A DNA stretch of 64,000 nucleotides from Amoebophrya sp. A120 (taxonomy: Eukaryota > Protista > Dinoflagellata): NCBI GenBank assembly GCA_905178155.1, contig CAJINV010000011.1:2460746-2524745 (forward strand). Reading direction: 5' to 3'. The notes beneath the pieces are model-generated. The model saw only the letters and a program-made list of their open reading frames with translations. It was not told where the DNA came from and made no database searches. The position numbers and the translations under genes are program-made. Within the stretch, counting starts at the first letter, position 1. Each line of letters opens with the position of its first letter. Below are positions 119 to 60,200 of the stretch, piece after piece.

Positions 119-2647
119 GTTTGATTTTTTCCTGATCATGATGGCTATTCTGGACACCTGGGTGATGGCCATCGTCGGCGGGGGCGGAGGTGGTCTGAAG
201 ATTTTCTCCGTGCTCCGTGTCTTGCGTGCCTTCCGATTAGTCAGGCTGGTCAAGCTGCTGCGTCAGTTCAAAGAGCTGTACCTTTTGGTGAACGGTATGG
301 TGGAAGCCTGTAAAACGCTCGTCTGGGTCGCCTGTCTGCTGCTCATCATCCTGTATTAATTTTTTTGTTTGATGTTTCTCGCTCGATCGTGGTTGCTTTC
401 GATTCGGATCTTCTTGCAGTACTCGTCAGAACCATAAAAGAGCTCTTTCATCTTCAAAAGGTGTTGGGGCTGTTGTGGTTACATGAAATTGATGTCTCAA
501 TAAACATACCCCCATCCCCTAGGTACGTGATCGGCATCATCTTCACGATTTTGATCGGCCAGAACACGGACCCGGCGCTGCGGTACCTCGGTACTTGGAG
601 CAAGGAGGATTACTGGGGATCGGTCCCAAAGTCGATGTACACTCTGTTCCAAGTGACGACGGGGGATTCCTGGGGTAGCAAAGTGGCGAGACCAATTATC
701 AAGGAATACCCGGCCTACACGATCTTTTTCCTGGTTTTCATCTTCCTGATCTCCTTCGGTCTGATGAACATCGTGCTCGGGGTGATTTGCGAGAACGCCA
801 TCTACGCCGCCAGTAAAAACACGGAGAACATGCAGAAGATCGTGCTGCGACACCAGCAACTGGTGATCAACTCCATAACGGCAATATTCGAAGCCGCAGA
901 CACGGACGGGAGTGGCGAGCTATCAAGAGAAGAATTCGACGAGGCGCTTAGCAAGAAGACGGTATAGTACGGGTGGTTCATCGTGTTGATGTTTCTATAT
1001 GCATATGCCTTTCAGGGTCGAAACTCACATGTCGGTAATCTCGAGGCCCGAAAGAAAAAGAAATGTGAGTGTAGTTGCAATAGTACAAAGCACTCTGAGA
1101 TAACAGCGACTTGCATGAAATGCAATATCAAAATCCATCTCAGGTGAAGCAAAAGTTAGAATTAATCGACGTCCCGCCAGAGGACCTCCGCATGCTCTTT
1201 GACCTCCTCGACGCCGACGGCAGCTATCAAATGCAAAAGTGTCTGGGTCCGGAAGGCTGCGAACTTGTGATGCGTGTTGCGCATCCTACAAAAATCTGTA
1301 TTGCATGGCGTGCAAAAGCTGTCCATTTCTGGCCATGCTGAGAGAGCATTTCTCATGCAGAATAGGCATCACCAAGGGGCTGCAGAACCTGTGATGCTAT
1401 GCCCTGCATTGCAGACTTGGCGGAGCTTGGAAAAACTGCAAAACAAAACGCGGAATCTTCCAGACCCAGACATTTTTGCATTTGATAGCAGCGGCGAGAT
1501 CACGATAGACGAGTTCCGAAAAGGCTGTCTGAAACTCCAGGGTACGGCGAAGTCGAAAGAAATGATAAAACTCGCGGTACACGTGTCGACATACAACAGC
1601 AACTTGGACGACATGCAGGACGCTATGGAAGAACAAAACCGAACCTTGAAGAAGATTTACAACAGGTAAAAGTTTATATACCTAGAAATTTTTGGTCGAG
1701 AGTTTGTCATGCATCTTGGTACGAACCGATTCCAGTCGCATTCAGTATAACAGTGTGTCATGGACGAGATGCTCAGGTATTCGTTTTGCAAACATCACCA
1801 AGACTGAAAAATGAAAATGTTAACTTGTTAAACAAAATCAGGCTTTACGACCTGGAGAAGCAGTATTTCCGGCACGATGCCAGCAAGAAGCCAAAGCGAC
1901 ACGAGGAGGAGGAGGCGGAGGCCCGCGTATCAAATGCAAAAATGTCATGGTCTGGAAGAATGCAAACTTGTGATGCGCATTTTACAACCCAGAAAAATCT
2001 CTCATGCACAGGCAGCAAAAGCTGGCCACTTTCTGTCACCAGGATGGGGCATTTGTCATGCGGATTCGGCATTGCGGAAGCTTCTCGAAACCTGTGATGC
2101 TAGAGCTTCCATGGCAGGCCTTCTGTGTCATGCAAAAGCAGCATGACTCTTCCAGACCCAGACATTTTTGCATTTGATACCGTGCGACCAGTGGCAAGCC
2201 CGTGAGCATCCTCGGCGCCGTGGCTGCGGCGGGCAGGCACATTGCACAGAGAAGAGGCGCCATGGAGGACGGAGAAGAGGGGGGCAAGAAGGAAGGCGAG
2301 GGGGCCGAGTACTTTTTACTTTTGCTTTTCTTTCATCAAGCCTAGCAACATGGTATGGTGTTTTTTCAAGTTGTTTGTGTAGACGGCAAATAAACAAAAC
2401 CCACGATAGAAAATATACACACAAATTTTTAGAAGTAGCTCCTAATTACAGGAAAAACGGAATATAATCGAATAACAGCGGCGTCCGCAGGAGTAGCCTG
2501 GACGCGTTGAAGGGTTTCATGGGCCGCGGAAAGACAGTGAACAATCTCGACGAACATTTTGCGGAACAAGACGAGCAAAATAGTGGTGAGGGACCCGACC
2601 CCGCGGCAACCACCGACAAACCACCACCGCCGCCGGGCGGAAGGTAG
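119..2647 (+). CDS. Single-domain voltage-gated Ca/Na-type cation channel with C-terminal EF-hands (5' partial, multi-exon)
   Basis: S4 voltage sensor LRVLRAFRLVRLVKLLRQF, pore LFQVTTGDSWG, S6 FGLMNIVLGVICEN, EF-hands DTDGSGELSREEF and DADGSGEITIDEF (the latter only after removing the 1225-1487 element). GT-AG introns 353-522, 962-1143, 1666-1841, 2309-2478; stop TAG at 2645-2647. Confidence 0.85.
1225..1487. mobile_element. Introner/MITE family A
   Basis: TIR TATCAAATGCAAAA(G/A)TGTCTGGGTC..GGAAG; flanking 5-bp repeat GCAGC/GCAGC; excision restores the EF-hand loop. Confidence 0.93.
1928..2179. mobile_element. Introner/MITE family A
   Basis: Same TIR; direct repeat CCGCG/CCGTG; excision gives EAEARATSGKPV in frame. 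Confidence 0.9.
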
Positions 2648-4046
2648 GTAAAACGCAGTCCGCTGATGGGAAAAATATGCTTCAGCGACAAGTACGAATG
2701 ACTGTACTTCATCCGAAATTAAACACTCACTTAAATTCTTCACTTCAGTTAATATCACTTTCACACACACTTTCACTTAAAAATTGCGTTAATACCAGAA
2801 ATTGAAATCCAAATCCAAGAAGTTAATCGACTCGAGTATAAGCGGATGCAGAGAAAAAGTTGTAGTTCCAAGTGCTGTCCGCGCTCGTGAAGTTCGTTCA
2901 TTGCGCGACAGAGGAGCAGCTTTCGTGCAGCACGAAAATGAAGTGCTGAAACAGTCACACCAGAAACCTGAGTAATCTGTGACTATGTGGACACACACTT
3001 TTGAAACCTGACACTATGAAATTCCTATGGTAAAAACTATTTCTGCGTGAAGTTGCGTGTGCTAGCTTCCTTGTCGTGATCGGCGTGACGACACCCTGTG
3101 GGCTTTGATTTTACACTATGTATCAACTTGTGCTGCAATCTACAACCAGTGTCATGCCTTTACAATTTGATGAAAATGCTAAATTTGACAAATGAATTCG
3201 CGAAATTAATGTTGTAAGTCAGAGTCAGTCGTCGTTGCGGGAGCCGCAAGAACCGGAACCTATTGCACCTAAGCGAAGAAGCTCAACATCGGACATAAGC
3301 AATAACAAACAAAAAGAGCCAGTCCGTGGTAATTCGAATTGATCCTGGAGGTTTGGAACTTTAAAACTGGTGCAGCGGTTTGAATAAGTATGCTTGCAGT
3401 AGAAGAAAATGAACGGCGTCAGCACCACCATTATTTCCGCGGCTAGAGCAAACATAGAGAGGAACAGATAAGAGGTATAGTAGAGAAGTACAACCCGCCA
3501 CTCATTTTTCTAGCGCACGTTCTCCCGTCGAGAATCAATTGGGATTTTCGTCTTGAGTGTTGCTTCTATTCGAGTATGGAATTCCGCTATTCAGTTCAAG
3601 TTTCTCGCAAACGGTCCTCGGTCCGCAGCAGACATGACAGACGATAAACACTTGAACTTTGTTGAAACCAGTACTGGACTTCTCAATCAATTGTACACAA
3701 GAACACTGCACTGGTGTGCTGAAAGTAATAACCTGTAGAACTACTAGTATGAGCACTAGATGACGACGCTGCTATTTTTACCCTCTTGTACACTTGTCCA
3801 AACTACCAAATCGTGGTGTAACCCGTGGTCTGCTGGAGAGGAGTGCGACCTGCTCCGTCCTTATCCGTGAAAATGAACAAACCTCAAAGATGAACTTTGT
3901 CGTGACACCCTGTGATGATGCTTTTTCGTAGTTCTCCGATGAAAGAGCATAGTGAGACAAATTTGAGGAAAAGAAATCCGGAAAAGTCTTTCGAGTACTT
4001 AAATCGAATCACGTCTTTCGGCGTTGAATATCGGCGTGTTTTATTG

Positions 4047-5001
4047 TTGAGAGGAAAAATTAAAGATGTTGTGGTAAAAGGTCATCCTATCCCTATCTGT
4101 AGTTTTGAATCGTTTCAATGGTCCGCTTGCTTCGCTTGTCGGTTTGCAACTCCTAGTTGATGATGGTAGCATCGCTTCAAGTAGAGGCAGGATCGATTTC
4201 TTTCGCTGCTTCGTTCTCTATCCGCTTTTTCAATGCATTTCGTTTCAAAGGAGTAATCATCCGAGGGGGAGTGCTCCACCTCTTGAAAACGCAATATGTC
4301 TGTCTCGTTGGTTTCTCATTCTCTCATATGCTTCCACTCTTTTCCGTTAAACCGCACGGTCAGTCTGAGTCGCCATCTTATTTGTTTTTTCGTATAGCCG
4401 GGTCTAGTTTTTATGTTATGTTGTCTAGTCTTTGATTTCTCACTACCATCATTCTCAATGCCACGTTTTGGGCTAAAGACTGAGTGAACCCACTTCGGTG
4501 GAGCGGATACTACCGAACGAATCGGACTTGTATCAGAATATAGAATAGTATGCGTGGTCGAGCTCTAGTTCATGAAAAAGTCGGCTGCACTCTTAAAGTT
4601 GCGACACGCCAAGCCCCCGATCAGCGATCAGCGATCAGAATTCCAATCCAAAAAACGGTTCTGTTCTTGTTTTTCAAGTTCTTTACAGTCAAGATCTTTG
4701 TCTCCCCCCATCCCATCATGTCTCTTCGTCTTAGCTTTCCCCCAGTACTACTAGAGATTTCTCTTCATTCGTTTCCCCGATAAGCAGAACACGTACAGTC
4801 GAGCTCGTCCACCTAGCTGTTTTGCCCTTGCTTCACGTGAGTAAGTACGTCTTTGCGATTAATATGCACTTGGGCACGTCGCCGCGGCCGTCAGTTGGCA
4901 GTAAAAGTCAACACTGCTAGTAGTTCCACAGCGTGGACTTCGGAAACGCAAACGCACTTGAATTCACAAGATGGAGCGTTACCTCCGCGCCCCGCCTGTG
5001 A
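4047..5001 (+). repeat. Diverged duplicate of the MFS gene upstream region and first codons (partner about 8945-9588)
   Basis: Shared blocks such as AGAACACGTACAGTCGAGCTCGTCCACCTAG, CAGTTGGCAGTAAAAGTCAACA and ATGGAGCG(T/C)TACCTCCGCGCCC. Confidence 0.85.
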
Positions 5002-5982
5002 AGATGGAGCGTTACCTCCTGCCCCTGAAGTGCAGCACCTGTAGTTCCACCATCCACACCCTCCAAAAGATGTTTTCCGAAAAACGACCTCATATCGCCG
5101 CGCTGCGAACTAGAATATCAAAAGACTACAAACGTCGTTAAGTGGTGTCAGAACATAGAACTGCAAAGTAAAACGTTTGTGCTGTCATCCAGCATTCGGT
5201 TTCGCTGTATGAGCATATTCTTACCACCTGGTTGGAATTTTCGGTTTGTTTTTTTTGTTTTTTGTTCTTCGGTTGTGTGTGAGTATTTCGTTCAAGTGCT
5301 GCACCTGGATTCGGTTACGCCTCATAAGTCGTGATAAAGATGAATAAATCGGGACCGGCCTGTGATCGTCTATACGAGCTGGAAAACGACCATGTAAATA
5401 TGTGGAGCCGCCGCGTTTATGTAGCTCTAGCAAAACATCAAAACACACATCAACAAAGCATCCCATAAATACACACATCAAAACACACAAAAGGACCCTT
5501 CTCGCCCGATTGCTTTTTGATGAAACTTTAACTTGTAATATTCTCTTTCAAAAGTCATAATTTTGATACCCCTGAGTGATATAAATAGATGGGAAGTAGA
5601 CCCAAGAAATTGAAAAAAGAAACTGCATCTTTTCAAAGTAGTCGCAAGAACTTACAGATGAACAAGATGTGTCTGGATAGTCTACAACTATAGTTAACGG
5701 TAAGCTGGTCGTGCTCCTTATTCTCGTCGTCATTGTATTTCCAAAGAAAAAATTGAAATTTTGCTGATAACAAGTCCCTTCACTGTACTGCCTGGCTCAG
5801 CCAGCACGAAGACGGCAAATCTTTTGCCGAAAACGCCGCAAGTATCAGCATCATGCTGCGACGAAAGGCAGCTGCGCGCGGGTTGTTGCTGGGATCGTGG
5901 TCCGCTTCTGTTTTCAGGGTGGGTGGCATCGGTATGAAAAGTAGAGTACACAACTTCATCCCCACGTCGTGCCCCCAGTTGC

Positions 5983-8174
5983 ATGTTACTGATGGTTCCT
6001 TTCACAGCAAAAACAAAAGTGCCAGTAATGGTAAAGATGCAGGAGCTCCTGATGTGCTCCGTCGTGCGACAAAAGATCGCGACAAGAGGCACTTATTCTG
6101 TTATTTCGGAATTATTTTCCGGATCGCCCTGCTCCTTTCAAGCGAGCAGAGCCAAGAACAGCGAGAAAAAGTGTGACAATTCGATATTTATGTGCATGAC
6201 GAAGGCTGAGGGGAAGTACAAAGGGAGGAAATTTTTGTGCACTCCGATAGAAGAAGCGGTGGACCACAGCACCAACTCGAACAAGGCACCTCGTCTCGTT
6301 CTTTTTGATCCAAATAAGAAGGGTCGTGATTCTATGGGTGGCAATTCCTGTCCTGTAAGGCGCTCTCAAACTCGTTAAGTACTACACTCTCAACTGTTGT
6401 TACATGAATTGCGATGCAAAACTAGCAAAAGTCGTGCAGGGAGGGAGCCTGATGCGTCGTGTCCCGCATAAATTTGGCACAGATTTACTTGTTCCCATGC
6501 CGTTTAATGGCGCTTCAATAATTTTTTTGTCATGCCAACTGGCGTCTTGATTGTGCGGAGGCTGATCTGGTAACCAAAGCGTGCGCAAGCGCTCGCAAGA
6601 GCGCTTTGCGCGCGGGCTTGCCCGCGCGCAAAGCGCTCTTTGCGAGATGCTCATCCATCGCAAACGCAGCGCGAAGGCTTTGCCGTTACCATATGGGAGG
6701 AACTCGGGGGTATGCAATCACTGGAAAAATCGGGCATTACGAAGTGTGTTTTGCCTTCAGAAAGCGGATCGGGCAGAATTGCTGGGAATTTTCCGGAAAG
6801 CAGCCAAAACAGCAATTGCCAAGCGGGGAAGGGGTAAAAAAGAGCATTTTTGCAGCTCCGCCCAGTCTGAATCTGAAAAAAGAGAATGGCACTTTCGGCT
6901 GGGGCCGATGGTGTGATGCGTTTTATAGCGGAAAATGCGTCGCGTCCGGGCAGCTCCAGCCGCTTTAAAATTGAAAAAAAACGTTGAAAAAATGCAATTT
7001 TTCGCAGCATGCAAGCGGGCGAGAAAATTTACCGATTTTCTCCAGTCCCCGGAAAACGCTTGGAAATTGAAAATGACAACTTTTTCTGAAAAAGCAAAAA
7101 CCGCTTAGAAATTGCCGCTCAAAAGGGGTTCGCAAAATTTTCCGCAGGCCCGTGCCACCGGGATTGGACGAGAAAAAAACAACTGTCAAGCCTGTGGAGG
7201 TGTGTCACACGGGCACGGTTTTCGACCTCTCTGAGGTCGCAAATTGGAACCCTTGCCCCGCTTGGAAAAGCCCGATCTGGGTGGCCCGAAAGGGCAGCCG
7301 GAAATGAACAGAACTGCGTTACTTTTGTAATTTGCGTATTTTTCCGGGCCAGCGTGCCCTCGTGCATAACGTTATGCACGACGGGGCGATGCTCGTTGAA
7401 AAACGCATTCTTTTGCGCGCCCTTGCTTCCTGGTTAGAGGATGAGAGCGCGGCCCGAAGCGGGCTGCAGTGTTGGACCGCGGCCCTTCGCACTGTAGCGG
7501 TAGCCTTCGCACTGTAGCGGTAGCCCCTTCGGATGCGCGGTAGCCTTCGCACTGACTGGGGTGGTTCGCACGCTTTTGGTTACCAATATCGCCCTCCGGG
7601 CGCGACCTTAATAGGTTTTTTTGCACGACAAATTGTGATGCATTAACAGTTGTTGACTACAGTGTAGTAACCTTTGAGACCACTGTCATATCCTGGTTGC
7701 TGGGATTGTAAGTATGATTCTGGATGCGGACCGAAAACGACGTGCAAGGAGCTGTCTCTGCACATGAAGGAATCGAAGACACCGGAGGATTTGGGGATGA
7801 GCCATGACCAGTGGGCGGAATCACTGTGTGAACGGGCCGGCGAAGGCTTACAATACATGCACTACTCCGACACGAAGGTCCTGATCAACGAGAACAACCC
7901 GGATTGGATGTTGAATGACAAGACCCTCGCGGAAAAATGCTGCACGAAGCCGTTTATGGTGCTTATGCATTGCAAAAGCTATGTATCCAATACAACTATC
8001 AGTGATCGCATCTTCTTTGATGTCACAAATTTCGCCAGAAGGGGAAATGAAAGTTAACTTTACAAAAAAGTAGATTTGTCCTGCATGATTAGTACGAATA
8101 CGATACTTTTGCAGTGGATAGTACCCGCCGCCCGATCCACCTCTGCGTCCAGTACCTCCTTTTTGCAAGCATAA
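5983..8174 (+). CDS. Cys-rich hypothetical protein (5' end uncertain) interrupted by two TIR elements
   Basis: ORF 5983-6378 (..MGGNSCP) joins ORF 7674-8057 (PGCWDCKYDSGC..) in frame once 6356-7690 plus one TCCTG is removed; after the 7964-8120 element it continues to TAA at 8172-8174. Confidence 0.55.
6356..7690. mobile_element. Long (1335 bp) non-autonomous TIR element acting as an intron
   Basis: TCCTG direct repeat at 6351-6355 and 7691-7695; degenerate TIRs (TCTCAAA..TACTACACT..CAACTGTT); right tip read on the minus strand, TATGACAGTG, equals the family E tip; no transposase-like ORF. Confidence 0.8.
7964..8120. mobile_element. Introner/MITE family B
   Basis: TATGCATTGCAAAAG ... GATACTTTTGCAGTGGATA; decayed repeat GTGCT/GTACC. 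Confidence 0.75.
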
Positions 8175-9556
8175 ATGAGTTTGCACGGTAACAAGATGAA
8201 CAACTGGAACCGCACTGAAAAAGTTCTTGAACTGCTTGAAAATAAACTTCCTGAATTGCTGCGACGTAGTACAACTAGCAGCCCGGCGCCGACCCAACGT
8301 CATCTACTTCACCAGTGCTCATCTCTCCTCCTTACAATTCAGAGCCACGTACGTCTTTTTCATCATCATTCGCATCATTCAAGATTGAGCGACCACGTAG
8401 TGCTTCTTCATTTTCAACACCTAGGTGAAGATGAGCGTCAACGTACAATACCTTTCTAGTTTCTGAAAAGTTACGTAAAAATCCGTAAAAATCAATGGCG
8501 ATTTGTTGTTCCGTATTAAGATTGTTCAATATAATCAGGAGAGCAGGTTTAATAGCAGTAGACCACGACATCACCGACATCGGCACTGACTCTTTTCGTA
8601 TGAACCTTGTGAATCTTTGTTTTGATGCAGTAAATTAATTATAATTTCATCTTCATTATTATTACAACTAACGAAGTTTGTCGCTTGTTTCAGAAGTCTT
8701 TCTCGATTCTCGTCGCGTTGGTTCTTCTGATGTGGTTGTCCGCCTTCTACACCTCTTAGTGGGGTTGAGGGCTTCAAATATTGAAGCATATCTAGGACTA
8801 CATGTGACGACGACGAGAGAGGTCATCGACAACGAACAAGGCAGCTGATTGCTATAATTTTTGGTGCTATAATCCGTGCAATGGTGTTGTTCAGCAGCCA
8901 AGTTGTCAATGCGCTTAACTTGTTTTGTTATCTAGGGCATGATGTTTTGAGAGAGAAAATGAAAGAACTTCAACGTGTTTTAGAAAAATTACATTTCATC
9001 TGTTTTGAATCGTTTATTTCATGGTCCGTTTTCTTCGCTTTTCGGTGTGCAAATCCTAAATGCTAGCATCGGTTTAGTAGGCAGCAGGCGCTCTTGGTCT
9101 TCGACTGCTTCGTTCTTCGCCGTAATTTTCAGTGCATTTCGTATCAATGCCGAGGGGGAGTGCAGCTTCGCCTCTTGAAAATCTCTCGTTTGTCCTCTCA
9201 CATGCTTGTTCTTCTGCTTTTCTCGTTAAATCACAGGCTTCTGTTCTTGTTTTTGAACCTCATATGAGCCAACAAGATCTCCGTTGTTTGTTCTCCACGA
9301 TACCCCTTCCTCTTTTTCCCCAGTAGATAGTCCCCTTCATTTCTCGTTTTCCCGAGAAGAAAGTAGAACACGTACAGTCGAGCTCGTCCACCTAGTTTCT
9401 TTTGCTCTTCACGTGCGTACTTAAGTACGTCATGGCGATTATGCATGACTCGGGAACGCCGCGGCCGGCAGTTGGCAGTAAAAGTCAACAGTGCTAGATC
9501 CACAGTGCGGAGTTTGAAAAAGCAAGCGCCGCATCCGCACTCGATTTCAACACAAT

Positions 9557-40995: not shown

Positions 40996-41794
40996 AGGAT
41001 GATTGGATCACTTGGGACACCTTCTGAACAGCTTTCGCGAACAAGAAGTTTAGTAATGTGAACAACTACGTGACCGCCCCAGTCTGATATTGTCTAGTTT
41101 TCTTTTGCTTTTGCAGCTTTCCGTTTCTTGCGCCTTTCTTGCATGATTGTCTTTGTCAGGATGATTGGATCACTTGGGACACCTTCTGAACTAAGCTTTC
41201 GCAAGCAAAAGGTTTAGTAATGTGAACAACTACGTGACCGCCCCAGTCTGATTTCATTAGTGTTTCTACTTACGGCTGTGGTTATTTTTGTTGTACTTAC
41301 ATTGTTATGCATATGCAGCTGGTTCTTTGTGTATGTGTTTCATCATGATGATTGGATCACTTGGGACACCTTCTGAACTAAGCTTTCGCAAGCAAGAGGT
41401 TTAGTTATGTGAACAACTACGTGACCGCCCCAGTCTGATTTTCTGGTGTTTCTCCTTACAGCTGTGGTTTCCTCTCTACTACTCGTACTCCCATGCGCTC
41501 CTACCAGCTGGCTCTTTGTGTTTCCTCATGATGATTGGATCACTTGGGACACCTTCTGAACTAAGCTTTCGCAAGCAAGAGGTTTAGTTATGTGAACAAC
41601 TACGTGACCGCCCCAGTCTGATTTCATGTATGTATATGTATTCCAGTTTTTACTCTTTAGCATGCGTGTTTTCTTTCCTTCTGATTCTTTGCGTTTCATT
41701 ATGATGATTGGATCACTTGGGACACCTTCTGAACTAAGCTTTCGCAAGCAAGAGGTTTAGTTATGTGAACAACTATGTGACCGCCCCAGTCTGA
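40996..41794 (+). ncRNA. Tandem array of five box C/D snoRNAs (40996-41087, 41158-41251, 41345-41438, 41528-41621, 41701-41794); SNORD31/snR67-like D guide plus SNORD58-region D' guide
   Basis: Each unit has box C (A(T/G)GATGA), CTTGGGACACCTT followed by CTGA (D'), an internal hairpin, and ACCGCCCCAGT followed by CTGA (D). Guides are antisense to conserved LSU rRNA segments GGUGUCCUAAG and CUGGGGCGG. Confidence 0.85.
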
Positions 41795-45258: not shown

Positions 45259-48200
45259 ATGACCGCGAACCATCCAGCGACCGGCAAGGAGGGGGTGGGG
45301 AATTTCCCCGCGCTCCTGAACGAGAAGTTCCGCTTGCAGTCCTACGACGGCGGGGCGTACAAGTCGAAGGGGAACTACAATTTGAAGAATGTTTTAACTC
45401 CCACCCTCGAGCCCTTCCACAGCAGCGGGCAAGGCGGGAAACTCACCGCGGTGTTCAAGTCGACGAACGATTGCACGTTTACGCATCTTATGAACTGCAA
45501 ATATGTCTGGGTCTGGAAGAGTGGAACTTGTAATGCCGTCTACGGATTCTAAAGATATCTGTGTTGCATGAGCAGCAAGAAGAGTCCAGCTCTTGGCACG
45601 CGGAGAGGGCATTTCTCATGCGTGATAAGCATCAAGAAGCTCTCAAAAAATCTGTGATGCTAGGACCTGCATCACTGACCTCGTGGGTCATGCAAAATGT
45701 GCATGACAAACCCCGACTCTTCCAGACCCAGATATATTTGCACTCGATAGATCTGTTCTTCTCCACAAACCTGACGAAATGCAACGACGCGCTGAAGTAT
45801 CCTGAGTAAAAACGTACCCACACCATAGTTGTCATGCAAATCTGCATGCTTAAAATGTTTCTCATGCGGAGCCCCATGAGAAGCATTTTCTAATGGTGTT
45901 TTGAAATTTGTCATGCTCCAATTAGCATGAGAGACTAGATCTGTAGTGCTGCTGAACTAGCTCAAACAGCACTACACTACGCGTCCAGATTTGTCATGCG
46001 AAACAGCCAAAGCTTGTGGATTTGTCTAGCCGATTCCCCATCTTGACTATGGGGTGGGTACGTTTTTACATAGGATATGAAGGCCGGCTTGTTCTGGGTT
46101 TTGTCCGACCAGCCGGACGTGAGCAAATACGCCAAGTTTGATAACTGCGATTTAGCGGAGTTGAAGGAGAAGTTCGGTATGCTGCCCCAGGAAAGAATTT
46201 ATGAGAAGGAGGACTTGTTTTTGTCGAAGAAGAAAAACACCGCGACCTCCAAAGCCGCGGCTGTTTCTGCAAAAGCCAGCGGGGCCACAGCTGCAACATC
46301 ATCTTCGAGTAGTGCAATAGCCTCAAGTGGAACATCAACTGTTGTTCCCGGTGCGGTGAGCAAGAGCAGTAGCGTTTCCACCGCACTGCCGGCACTAGGT
46401 GCTGGGGGAGCAGCTGCAGCAGCATCTTCATCCTCGTCGCAACCAGGTTCTGGAACTACAGCAGCAGGCGGCGCAAGTGCTAGCAGTTCAACTACAGGTA
46501 CTACCAGTAACAAACCGCAACTGGTGGTACCGAAAATCGGTTTTTCCGTTGCGCTATCAAGTGTAAAAGTGTCTGGGTCTGGAAGATTGCCAGGTTTGTC
46601 ATGCATATTTTGCATAACCCATGATGCCTGTAATGCATGGCCGAGCATGACAGATTTTTAGATGACCTTCTGAATCTGATGCGTATTCCGCATGAGAAAT
46701 GCCCACTCCGCGTAGCACAAACTGAACTCCTCTTGCTGGTCCTGCAATACAGATTTTTCTACCTTCCAAAGACAGCATCACAAGTTGCAACCTTCCAGAC
46801 CCAGACATTTTTACGTGGGCAGAAGTTCATCGCACCCATTTTGCATGTTGCGCAAGTGATAGTATAAGTAGTAGTACTCAGTACCACCGGTGGACGTCAT
46901 AACATGCTTTTAGTCTCTCTCTACATATTATATCCACGTTGTTCTCTTCTCTTTTCTTTCTTCAAAATGTTAAAGTCGTTCTCTTCCCTGTGCTGTACCA
47001 TGGTCTTGCTTCCAGACAAAACACCAGACATTTTTACATTTGATATGCGCCCTTCGGGTCGTTTTCAGCAGCGTCCTCAGCAGGCGCTGGTGCTGCTGCT
47101 GCGCCCTCCTCCTCCTCGTCCGCGCCGCAAGCAGGAGGTGTAGAAGGTGATGGGGGGAAGAAAAAGAAAGACGCGGATCATAATATAATACTCACCAGAA
47201 GGAAATTGTAGCAGATACTTCGCGAATTTAAGCAGATCCAAAAGTTGCCGCTTTTTATTTTTTTGGCATTGCGAGGACGAAGGTCAAGCCTTGACCGTCA
47301 AGGTAGCAGGTCCAGGTGGCACTCCCCATGACAGCCATCTGGCTGCATGCTGGAGAAGCTTACCGCTGAATCCGCTTGCGCGGGAGTTACGCACTTGCTT
47401 GGGCCGATAGGGATAGAGAGGGCGACTGAGAAGGGCGGTCGGCCCCTGCAGCCAACAAAATTTCTGTGCGCCCGGTATTGCTGCCCCAGTTGCCCTCTGG
47501 CCTGCTTCTAGTATTTTTGTTGGAGCAGGCGCATTTTTTAGACTCAACATGATGGTGCTCAGTCTTCATTTTTGCGCTATGCAGCCTCACCTCGTGCGCC
47601 TGCGTTGCCTTGTCCTTGTTTTACGATGTGGCGTCGCATTTTCAGTCTTTACGGCACATTCGTAGAGGCACACGCGGCCGCTCGGAAGCAAAGCAGCCCG
47701 CCGCGACGTTTTTACTCGCGCGCGCCAAAGGTTTCGGCGCAGGGGTGTTGCGCGTCTCATAGGGTGGCCGGGAATAAAAAAAACAGCTGGCCACCGTGCG
47801 GAGCCACTGCACGAGCCGCGGCGCCACTTCGCGAAAACATTAAAAGCGAACAAAAACAAATGTTCCGCGCGCAGGTCGCGCAAAGCGAACAATTCTCAAA
47901 GCCAAGAAGTTGGGCCCTCCGTGTGGAGGGTTGAGTGAGAATGTCGTGCTTCGTTGGACAGGAAATTTCGGCTTCTTCTTGCGCCGCTAGCGGCCCACAA
48001 AGAAGCCGGCCCCTCCGCCCGGAGGGGGCGGTTTCTTTAGGACCCGGAAGCACCAAAAGCGCCGACTTTCGTTGTTTTCTGGGTAAAAGGTAGTGGTCCG
48101 GCTATCAAACAAACCGCCCCCTCCGCGCGGAGGGGCCTGTTTCTTTCTGGGCCGCCAGCGGCGGAAGAAGAAACCGAAAATAAGAAATCGACCCCTCCGC

Positions 48201-57200: not shown

Positions 57201-60200
57201 TTCCTTTCACGGTCGCATTCGATTATAGACACGATCACGAGCAATAGTTTGCTAATCTTCCACTGCGTAATAGCAATAGAAGCCGGGCCGTCGTAGAAGT
57301 GGAGTTTTTGAATCGTAGGCATCGTAAAAAAAGTGTAAGAAAGTTTTTGGCTTTGTTGAACCTTCCCATTGATTCGGTAAACCTGAACGTATCTTCTTCT
57401 CCCAGGTGCCGGCAAGTTAGGGGACGACCCGTCTTACCGACGACCCGGGCACCAGGTCCGCAGCAGTGGCAAAGGACCTGAATCATCTTCCGCGGAGAAG
57501 GGAAGTGGTGCTTCTGCCTTCGGGAGCGGCAAGGGATGGTTCGTGAACAGCTCTGCCGGGCCGGTTTACATCGAGGAAAAGGGCGGCAAGAAGGGCAAGA
57601 AAGTGGGCATCTTTAAGGGGTCTTCTGCCGATTTCTGGAGCAGCCTGGGCGTCGTCGACGGTGGGAAGGGGAAGGGCAAAGGCGATGCTAGTGGTAGTAC
57701 GGGGAAGGGTCGTTCTCCGAGTCTTGCTCGTGCGGGTTCGAGCCGCGGCGCGGGGCGAGGCCCGATCGACGCCATGTTCCAGGCGGCCATTGACGCGAGC
57801 GGAGAAAACGATCCTGCATCGAGGTCGATCTTCGGGTTCGGAGGTGCATCAGCAGCTTCAGCCGCGGCAAACCAACCGCCTGCCCTCAGCGCTCTGTCGG
57901 GTAGTTCCAGCGCCCCGGCAGCAGCGGCTGGCGCGGCAGCCGCTGCCGCTCCGAGCGGAGGAGAACAAATGTTGAACAATGTTTCAGCAGCAATCGCCGC
58001 ACAGCAAGAGAATTCCTCCGCTTCTTCCGCCGCCAACGAGATCAGCAGTTTCGCGGAGGAGAGCGTGCGACCCGACCGCGCGGGGGAATCTTCCGCTGCG
58101 GCCAGCGACAACAACGGGGGAGAGCAGCAAAACCAGAATAACCCCTCTGGTGACAGCAACCCTATGAACATTCCCCCCGCCCCGGAAGCCCCGGCACCGC
58201 CACCCCCAGATCATGATCGCCCCGCTGCGCCGTTTCCTGCCGCTGCAGTGGATCTAGTTAACATGCAAGACGACAGCCCGCGCCAGCGACGGGGATCAGT
58301 TGGTAACGACAGCGAGCGCGACCCTCTCCTCGAGGGCCTACCGCAAGGCGGAGATTCCGTCCCGTTTGAGGAAGAAGAGGAGGAAGTGTCCATTATTCTA
58401 AGTACAAACGTCCCCACCCCAGGGTTGTCATGCAAATCTGCATGCTTAAAATGTTTCTCATGCGCCGGAGCCCCATGAGAAGCATTTTCTAGTCGTGTTT
58501 TGGAGTTTGTCATGCTCCAATCAGCATGATATGCTAGATCTGTCATGCTGCTGAACTACCTCAAACAGCACTACACTACGGGCCCAAACTTGTCATGCAA
58601 AACAGCCAAAGCTTGTGGATTTGTCTAGCCGATTCCCCATCTTGACTACGGGGTGGCGACGTTTTTACAAATGATATCCATCTCCGCGTCCGGGGAACGA
58701 CCGGAAAACGAGAATTTGGACGGGGACATAAACCGATCTGGAGCTGTATGCATTGCAACAGTATCGTACTACTAAGTAGTTTAAATTGCATTACAAATTA
58801 GCCCAGCATTACAAATTGAATTTGTAATGCTGATTCACCTTGGGAAAGAGATTTGTCATGCATAAACGCAATTACTACTAGTACGATACTTTTGCACAGG
58901 ATAAGCTGCTGGCGCGTCGAGCAACAATCCGAACAACGACGACTGGATGGAAGACAGCCAGTACGACGACGGCGTATGACAGTGCACAACTCCCCCTCCC
59001 CCTCATTTGTATAGCATGAACGGCAAGCCAACTGTCAGCAAGAATACAGGTTTTGCATCACAAATTTGCACAGGAGTGTAGTGCTATTTGGGCTGCCAAA
59101 ATTTGTCATGCAAAAAGTGCCAAGAGGCAAAGGGTAGATTTGGTATTTTGCATTACAAATGAGAGGGATGGGGGGTTGTACACTCTCATACGGCGAGGAC
59201 GATTTTTACTACGGTGTGGACGACCACGACGACCACGACAGCGAAGGAGACGAGCCCTATCCTGTGCAAAAGCATCATACTAGTATGAATTGCATTACAA
59301 ATTGGGTTTGCATTACAAATTGGATTTGTAATGCGGATCTGCCTTAAGATGAAAATTTGTAATGCATGACTGCAATTACAACGATACTTTTGCATTGCAT
59401 AAGCCCAGTTCCGGCGGAATCTTAGAGTCCTTCCTCGGCGGGGGCGCGGGGGGAGCTGCGTCTTCTTCCGCTGCTGTTGAGTCGGGTTCGCAGGCGGCCG
59501 CGGCATTGTCCGGCGTGGATATCAGCGGCCGGAGCCGGGATCGACTTTTGGAACAATTGGTTATGATGGAAGAAATGTTCGCCGGCGGAAGGTCAAGCAG
59601 GTACTGGTTTACGTGGTTTGGTGTTGGGATTGGTATATGATTCGTCCTGGTTGTTCTGGTCGTAAATGACAAACCAACTACTAGTACGGTCTTCCTCTTC
59701 TAGGATCAAGGTCGTCCATAGGTGGATGTAGAAGCGCACTTACTACTCAGAAGTGATTATTCCCATGATTCGGAAAATAAATCGTTCTTTCTTCATGAAG
59801 CACAAATCATAAAAACCAAATCCCAGGTCGGGCGCCGGCGGTGTTTCATCCGGCAACTCACGCTCCGCTGCTCGCGGTCTGAGCGGCAGCATTTTCAGTC
59901 TTTTGTCGGGCGGCGCGGGGGGCCGCGGAGGCGGTGGCTTCGACGACGATTTGCTGGTGTCAATGGGCGGCGGACATAGTTCAGACCGCCACCGCTCCAG
60001 TGCACAAGCCGTGGAGAGCCTGAAGCGCGTGGGCGAGTTCCCGCTGAAAGCGTCGCTGCCCGGTTTCACCAGGACCGCCGAGGTGAACGACCCACGGTCG
60101 ACGCTGGAGCACCCGGTCTCCGAGCGGGTTACGCAGGCAGAACTGGAGTCGCAACTCGAATACTTGTTGCCCGAGCAGGACAATGTCAATGGCGATAATC

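Follow-up and report, generated by a model that had tools for sequence, protein, structure and literature searches.

The host gene and its 1,340-nt intron

The window analysed here is a stretch of 64,000 nucleotides from Amoebophrya sp. A120 (contig CAJINV010000011.1). Between positions 5853 and 8174 it holds a gene on the forward (+) strand whose middle intron is non-canonical, 1,340 nt long and bordered by an exact 5-bp repeat. The features of the gene are as follows.

5853..8174, + strand: host gene, with a predicted cysteine-rich product of 165 aa ending FLQA; exons ..5931, 6254-6354, 7695-7962 and 8125..
5932..6253, + strand: neighbouring intron 1, an old introner, which is GT-AG if the preferred register is used; contigs have loose ends at 5931 and 6253
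6351..6355, + strand: TCCTG, left copy of the 5-bp target site duplication (TSD), by sequence match
6355..7694, + strand: non-canonical intron of 1,340 nt; six equivalent registers, GT..CT being probably the one used
7691..7695, + strand: TCCTG, right copy of the 5-bp TSD, by sequence match
7963..8124, + strand: neighbouring intron 3, a 157-bp introner plus 5 nt, TT..AC in the preferred register; joint 7961→8124 (both=1)

The true N terminus of the host protein is likely to lie at 5853, and no Pfam match was found for the NCBI A120 gene model P0001. A single database protein, named as Amoebophrya sp. A120, corresponds to exon 3 (7692-7961), at 100%. Intron 5932-6253 was skipped by contigs of runs X3, X4 and X6, yet it is read through in the NCBI models P0001 and P0002.

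Removal of the 1,340-nt intron was seen in contigs of X3, X6, X4 and X9, which carry the joint 6350→7691 with 1,340 nt skipped and five letters that fit either side. The joined contig had a depth of 392 in X3, two such contigs were obtained from X4, and the side length in X9 was 63. X9 is recorded as RNA (a metatranscriptome from another study), and X3, X4 and X6 are RNA by guess only. The DNA-like run X1 covered all 30 bins, kept the insert and had no 6350→7691 joined form, and its contigs 6230-6389 and 6360-6590 span both sides of the left junction with zero differences. Run X10 gave three pieces only and no join, and X7 did not extend over the exons. The 6350→7691 join is already part of P0001. 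A120 introners are described in passages of Farhat (2021, PMC7789003) and Gozashti (2025, PMC12130899) as having TA..TA ends, inverted repeats that start TAT, a direct repeat of 3-5 nt over the exon/intron border, and non-canonical splice sites. Two marks of an A120 introner were found here, namely removal from the mRNA and a direct repeat over the exon/intron border (TCCTG, 5 nt). The 1,340-nt stretch is a real, spliced, non-canonical intron of this known introner type.

A sequence-only reading of this DNA had noted the exact TCCTG repeats, predicted an in-frame join of the flanking coding sequence across a non-canonical junction, and concluded that a kilobase insert is tolerated. All of this agrees with the contigs, recorded RNA included, and with the gene model. 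The two flanking ORFs that it had linked are indeed joined across TCCTG, but the upstream ORF is for the most part (5938-6253) intronic, and so is the end of the downstream one (after 7962), because introns 5932-6253 and 7963-8124 occupy them.

The joint allows six registers on the + strand, TC..TA, CC..AT, CT..TC, TG..CC, GT..CT and TA..TG, with no GT-AG among them. A GA-AG reading on the minus strand (6353-7692) was rejected, since the + strand carries the spliced ORF, intron 1 with its GT-AG borders, and P0001. Because both neighbouring introns have decayed TSDs, the register could be narrowed to two positions: these introns, each consisting of an element plus 5 nt, can start only 1 or 2 nt before the element TA. 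The 1-nt register yields GT..AG for intron 1, TT..AC for intron 3 and GT..CT for the 1,340-nt intron. We infer that the cut is likely to fall 1 nt ahead of the left TA and 4 nt past the right TA, giving GT..CT.

Anatomy of the intron and of its inner element

The interior of the intron resolved into two arms of a host introner and a multicopy element between them, with the following parts.

6356..6565, no strand assigned: left part of the host TA..TA introner; degenerate terminal inverted repeat (TIR) at about 6356-6440; common introner motif at 6526
6566..7611, + strand: nested non-coding multicopy element of 1,046 bp resembling Helitron2/HLE2; TGA^TA site without TSD; the shared AT lets the ends shift by 1 nt
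6568..6585, + strand: 5' asymmetric subterminal inverted repeat (ATIR), 2 nt from the 5' end; 21 bp and perfect in copies L001 and L003
6592..6646, no strand assigned: strong 5' hairpin with a 21-bp perfect core; differs between copies
7360..7381, no strand assigned: 22-bp palindrome in the inner element
7484..7554, + strand: 20-nt tandem array of 3.5 copies in the inner element, by repeat analysis
7567..7585, + strand: 3' ATIR, 26 nt from the 3' end
7590..7602, + strand: short 3' hairpin with a 5-bp GC stem, 9 nt from the 3' end; invariant in 7/7 copies
7612..7690, no strand assigned: right arm of the host introner, with TIR; common motif at 7623; 10-nt tip identical to that of element 58975-59190

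Minus the insert, the host introner measures 289 bp (6356-6565 plus 7612-7690) and has a 5-bp TSD. Alignment of its ends scored 48.5, a value reached by none of 1000 shuffles (maximum 47), although the TIR is degenerate: the right tip reads TAT and the left one TAA, whereas a relative, seen as a loose end of X7 at 6383, has TAT as its left tip. The host introner is repeated in the genome, as an empty copy and as the relative with another flank, and it shows a distant likeness to element 58975-59190 (score 115.5; maximum 98.5 in 200 shuffles). The whole 64-kb window is rich in TA..TA elements with 5-bp direct repeats, since 16 of the 25 rows of a TIR scan scored at least 34, with lengths of 144-491 bp; that scan left out the 6356-7690 element itself, whose tips match in fewer than 7 of 14 bases.

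Several features of the window were recorded alongside. The motif TTTGT[CA][AG]TGC, picked after it had been sighted, has 33 sites in the window compared with 0.28 in mononucleotide shuffles (for example at 2052, 6526, 7623, 14207, 33517, 45990 and 59102). Twenty-eight of the 33 lie inside 19 catalogued introners (5,829 bp in all), 15 of which contain it; the sites are found in either orientation and in more than one family, and four of the six JACKZZ01 copies of the inner element have the motif too. It may be a common binding site of the mobilising protein. A 491-bp member of a 250-270-bp family, with an exact TSD, lies at 46555-47045 and is possibly another nested or doubled introner. At 40996-41790 a tandem series comprises five units at spacings of 162-187 nt, each unit being about 110 nt long, starting ATGATT after purine-TG and ending CTGA. 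The series is likely to be a box C/D snoRNA array; the units had no Rfam match at gathering score.

A scan for the 3' end of the inner element gave eight loci, six of which are family copies on JACKZZ01 contigs; L002 and L007 were dropped, having only a 19-nt pattern in common with it. Three full-length copies elsewhere measure 1,466, 1,334 and 1,045 bp. TGA stands ahead of the 5' end in all four full copies and TA follows the 3' end in 7/7, and a TSD is absent at all four. The copies sit in varied flanks without the introner arms, and none of the three full copies elsewhere lies within a detectable introner (TIR element), so that the idea that the inner element targets introners found no support. 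The same borders were visible in the runs. In X1, which contributed 301 contigs over 1.6 kb, the summed depth was 28-136 over 6362-6523 compared with 140-9000 over 6524-7657, depth not being equal to copy number, and eight contigs whose flanks differ (agreement 0.43) join at 6563. At the other end, contigs depart at 7613-7614 (four in X3, two in X4 at 7613, and also in X6).

A copy of the host introner that lacks exactly this insert was also found. The joint 6566→7624 was present in X1 at a depth of 31.4 and again in X3, and the empty site, which is one contig sequence, reads TGATA. Removal in two steps, with the inner element leaving first, was rejected, since the X3 joint has the extra letters of the X1 contig and equals the empty DNA copy. 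In the empty-copy contig the variants stop at 7672, and this piece appears to extend to about 7703, into exon 3. Because it seems to reach exon 3, the insert-free copy is likely to lie in a paralogous gene, a placement that depends on this contig end. A paralogous gene, P0002, does exist, its indels matching variant contigs at 5869, 6126 and 6163; of the spliced contigs of X4, one equals the window (depth 343.9) and the other has five differences (342.5). The intron is thus very probably a composite, a 289-bp TA..TA introner that holds a separate 1,046-bp element.

The structures within the insert vary between copies. The 21-bp stem (6597-6617/6620-6640) had a z score of −7.2, with 0/200 shuffles as stable, and this strong 5' hairpin occurs in one of four copies, a stem of no more than 3-5 bp being common to all four; other copies skip it wholly or partly (joints 6583-6656, 6584-6621 and 6586-6631). 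Longer counterparts of the palindrome at 7360-7381 (z −2.8, 1/200 shuffles) were seen in L001, L003 and L005, about as far from the 3' end. The short 3' hairpin is weak alone (z −1.75, 10/200 shuffles). No Pfam match at E≤1 was obtained for seven tested ORFs of at least 100 aa within 6356-7690, a further ORF in the 7119-7433 region having been tested in one frame only, and the window had no Rfam match.

These results bear on the rest of the sequence-only reading, which had described a cargo-carrying introner with internal hairpins. Its degenerate TIRs, perfect stem, palindrome, tandem units and lack of a transposase-like ORF were all borne out. The right tip that it equated with a short family E, here taken to be 58975-59190, is identical over 10 nt and over no more than these. 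The hairpins exist; together with the tandem units, they belong to the nested element and not to the interior of the introner, and what had been called cargo is a second mobile element that probably entered later.

Some observations on the inner family stand apart from this. Host flank 6557-6566 is complementary at 8/10 positions to 7588-7597 in the 3' subterminal part of the insert, which lengthens a predicted stem; this complementarity is absent from the three other full copies and is likely to be chance. Many internally deleted forms appear as joints (e.g. 6581-7534) in X1, X3, X4, X6 and X7, their sides often shorter than 30 letters, which suggests short derivatives of about 100 bp. In L004 an inner-family copy has its 3' end exactly where a 1.6-kb element (639-2278 in the reverse orientation), whose inverted repeats measure 78 bp, starts. 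Next to a 5'-truncated inner copy, L005 (3543-5018, − strand) carries a (CAT)n tail preceded by a 492-aa ORF that contains zinc-finger-like motifs; ORF and tail look like a LINE 3' end. L005 was rejected as an autonomous copy, as the inner copy is truncated and the ORF beside it has no Pfam match.

Class and origin of the inner element

Given the composite structure, the inner element is probably of the Helitron2 type; its anatomy matches that of Helitron2/HLE2, a fit drawn from sequence features. Helitron2 is defined, in the part of Bao and Jurka (2013, PMC3627910) concerned, by a 5' ATIR that lies 0-2 bp from its end and by a 3' ATIR that stands upstream of a hairpin, 20-30 bp from the other end. 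The spacings of 2 and 26 nt in the window copy, L001 and L003 fall within this definition, a hairpin with a weak stem stands just past the 3' ATIR, and neither the four full copies nor the empty site has a TSD. Further points of likeness to non-autonomous Helitron2/HLE2 elements, as far as they are covered in the sections on these elements, are the 5' T, the palindromic core in the subterminal repeat, the internal tandem repeats and the variable non-coding interior (PMC3627910; PMC4067079, where HINE/DINE-1 elements are described with internal tandem repeats and no TSD). The element differs in repeats that lie at or above the upper end of published lengths (18 bp in the window and 21 bp in L001 and L003, compared with 8-15 bp in PMC3627910 and 11-18 elsewhere), in an inconstant 5' hairpin, and in its target, TGA^TA, which is not T-rich, whereas HLE2 elements usually insert at T^T (excerpt of PMC11417382). 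TGATA agrees with the TNATA of a fungal subgroup: in the portion of PMC5148889 dealing with FoHeli1/2 of Fusarium and with Chaetomium, insertion is between TNAT and A according to the text, and between TNAT and T according to a figure legend. These fungal elements also share the ATIRs and the TC start, and the Chaetomium Helitron2 is without a 5' hairpin formed by the 5' ATIR. In comparison with the same source, the 3' end here is TTCA and not ATTTT, the repeats are 18-21 bp and not 12 bp, the N of the target is G in 4/4 copies, and the host is an alveolate. Assignment to Helitron1/HLE1 was rejected, as the end is TTCA/TTAA and not CTRR and ATIRs are present, although the 5' TC (in 3/4) and A^T fit.

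A RepHel partner was not found among 26 window ORFs. A Helitron2-like RepHel is reported from Symbiodinium in a passage of PMC8788227. A query with the RepHel of L030, whose subgroup is uncertain, gave 76 matches in a word-limited search, none named Amoebophrya and most without an organism name, and the inner element's 3' end had 0 matches in viral and prokaryote collections. Helitron RepHel ORFs (PF14214, in L030 also PF05970) were seen at L030 3093-8120 and L040 2264-3919, on contigs filed as giant-virus MAGs; these are either host contamination or virus-borne Helitrons.

We consider it reasonably probable that the 1,340-nt intron arose from a TIR introner into which a non-autonomous Helitron2-type rolling-circle element later inserted at TGA^TA without target duplication, our confidence in this whole reading being the product of that in the composite and that in the type. 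The same nested composite could have been built by another enzyme, with the inner element moved by a recombinase or a Y1-HUH route (Crypton-, IS607- or IS200/IS605-like), crossover at the shared AT core of TGATA and the inverted repeats as putative binding sites. The missing TSD, the fixed pentamer target, the AT common to both ends and target, and the RepHel searches given above all speak for such a route; according to part of PMC3627910, YR and SR elements make no TSDs, but they are also without TIRs, whereas the inner element has asymmetric repeats of 18-21 bp, Helitron2 spacing and a 3' hairpin. On balance we regard it as unlikely. Because a RepHel is unreported for A120, we also put forward a reading to which we give somewhat less credence still, that a non-RepHel enzyme moves the inner family, which would be a eukaryotic transposon without TSD and specific for TGA^TA, and that splicing reads only the paired introner ends, so that insertions into coding regions would cost nothing.

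Two other accounts deny the nesting. If the long form came first and moved whole, deletion at AT microhomology would have produced the short host copy; one empty copy gives no direction, and the junction does have 2 nt of microhomology. Such a deletion, however, must have excised exactly a unit that is found free in other flanks, the remaining 289 bp falls within the length range of the 16 strong TA..TA elements, and the full copies elsewhere lie outside detectable introners, which makes this account very improbable. The sequence-only reading had supposed a deletion derivative of the autonomous parent of the introner, with the interior left over from that parent. A120 does have longer TA..TA introners that show transposase-like homology, such as family 38 (about 810 bp, 5-bp TSD, TA termini) in the family descriptions of PMC12130899. 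The interior described here, however, has its own ends and its own set of copies in many unrelated flanks without the arms, shows no coding trace and is exactly absent from the empty host copy; arms and interior travel apart, and we give this supposition hardly any weight.

Splicing of the composite and its meaning

In the favoured reading, a TA..TA introner would have entered the exon and duplicated TCCTG, the gene would then have been duplicated, and the inner element, mobilised in trans by a RepHel, would have entered one of the two gene copies. The host arms would still pair and the inner element would close via its own inverted repeats, holding the splice sites near each other regardless of the interior. 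The predicted fold of 6345-7700 contains 45 expected outer-arm pairs and 19 pairs between the inner repeats. Forty-eight outer pairs were predicted whether the insert was present or removed, and again when it was shuffled (10 of 12 runs), compared with 0-44 pairs in 12 shuffles of the right arm, and the arms were unpaired over their outermost 8-11 nt. The persistence of the outer pairs without the insert and in most insert shuffles suggests that the insert is likely to be looped out, with the splice sites no more than some 25 nt from the base of the stem, as modelled for a long RNA with few controls. The nonconventional introns of Euglena, in the part of PMC12501133 that treats them, are likewise non-GT-AG, with ends that are believed to pair a fixed distance away from the border of the exon; they differ in a CAG/CTG motif and in coming from an unrelated lineage, and the comparison is one of analogy. 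How Amoebophrya splices without GT-AG, and apparently without U1, is presented as an open question in PMC7789003 (in the passage on splicing).

Kilobase introners were already known for A120, with families of about 0.6-1.2 kb, some of them near 1.1-1.2 kb, listed in a portion of the Gozashti (2025) dataset (58 families; PMC12130899). The 6356-7690 introner differs from A120 introners in owing its length to a nested second element and in its left tip, TAA and not TAT, and its 1,340 nt lie outside the 40-1000 nt to which the intron analysis of Farhat (2021) was confined, as given in a section of PMC7789003. None of the 18 'helitron' places in supplement file 8 of PMC12130899 falls in an Amoebophrya row, the text and supplement text of PMC7789003 contain no mention of Helitron, and Amoebophrya is unnamed in the HELIANO supplement. 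The novelty lies in a likely HLE2 family from Syndiniales and in two paralogs, of which one carries the insert and the other probably lacks it. Going by the literature on Helitron in Amoebophrya and dinoflagellates, the inner family would probably rank as the first element of Helitron2 type to be recorded in Syndiniales. The 1,340-nt intron is no lead to the introner's transposase, and it warns that a long introner in A120 can turn out to be a nested composite, which tells little about that missing enzyme. The paralog pair, likely holding versions of about 294 nt and 1,340 nt of one intron with the same joint, offers a natural test of whether the intron is defined by its ends rather than by how long it is or what lies inside it.
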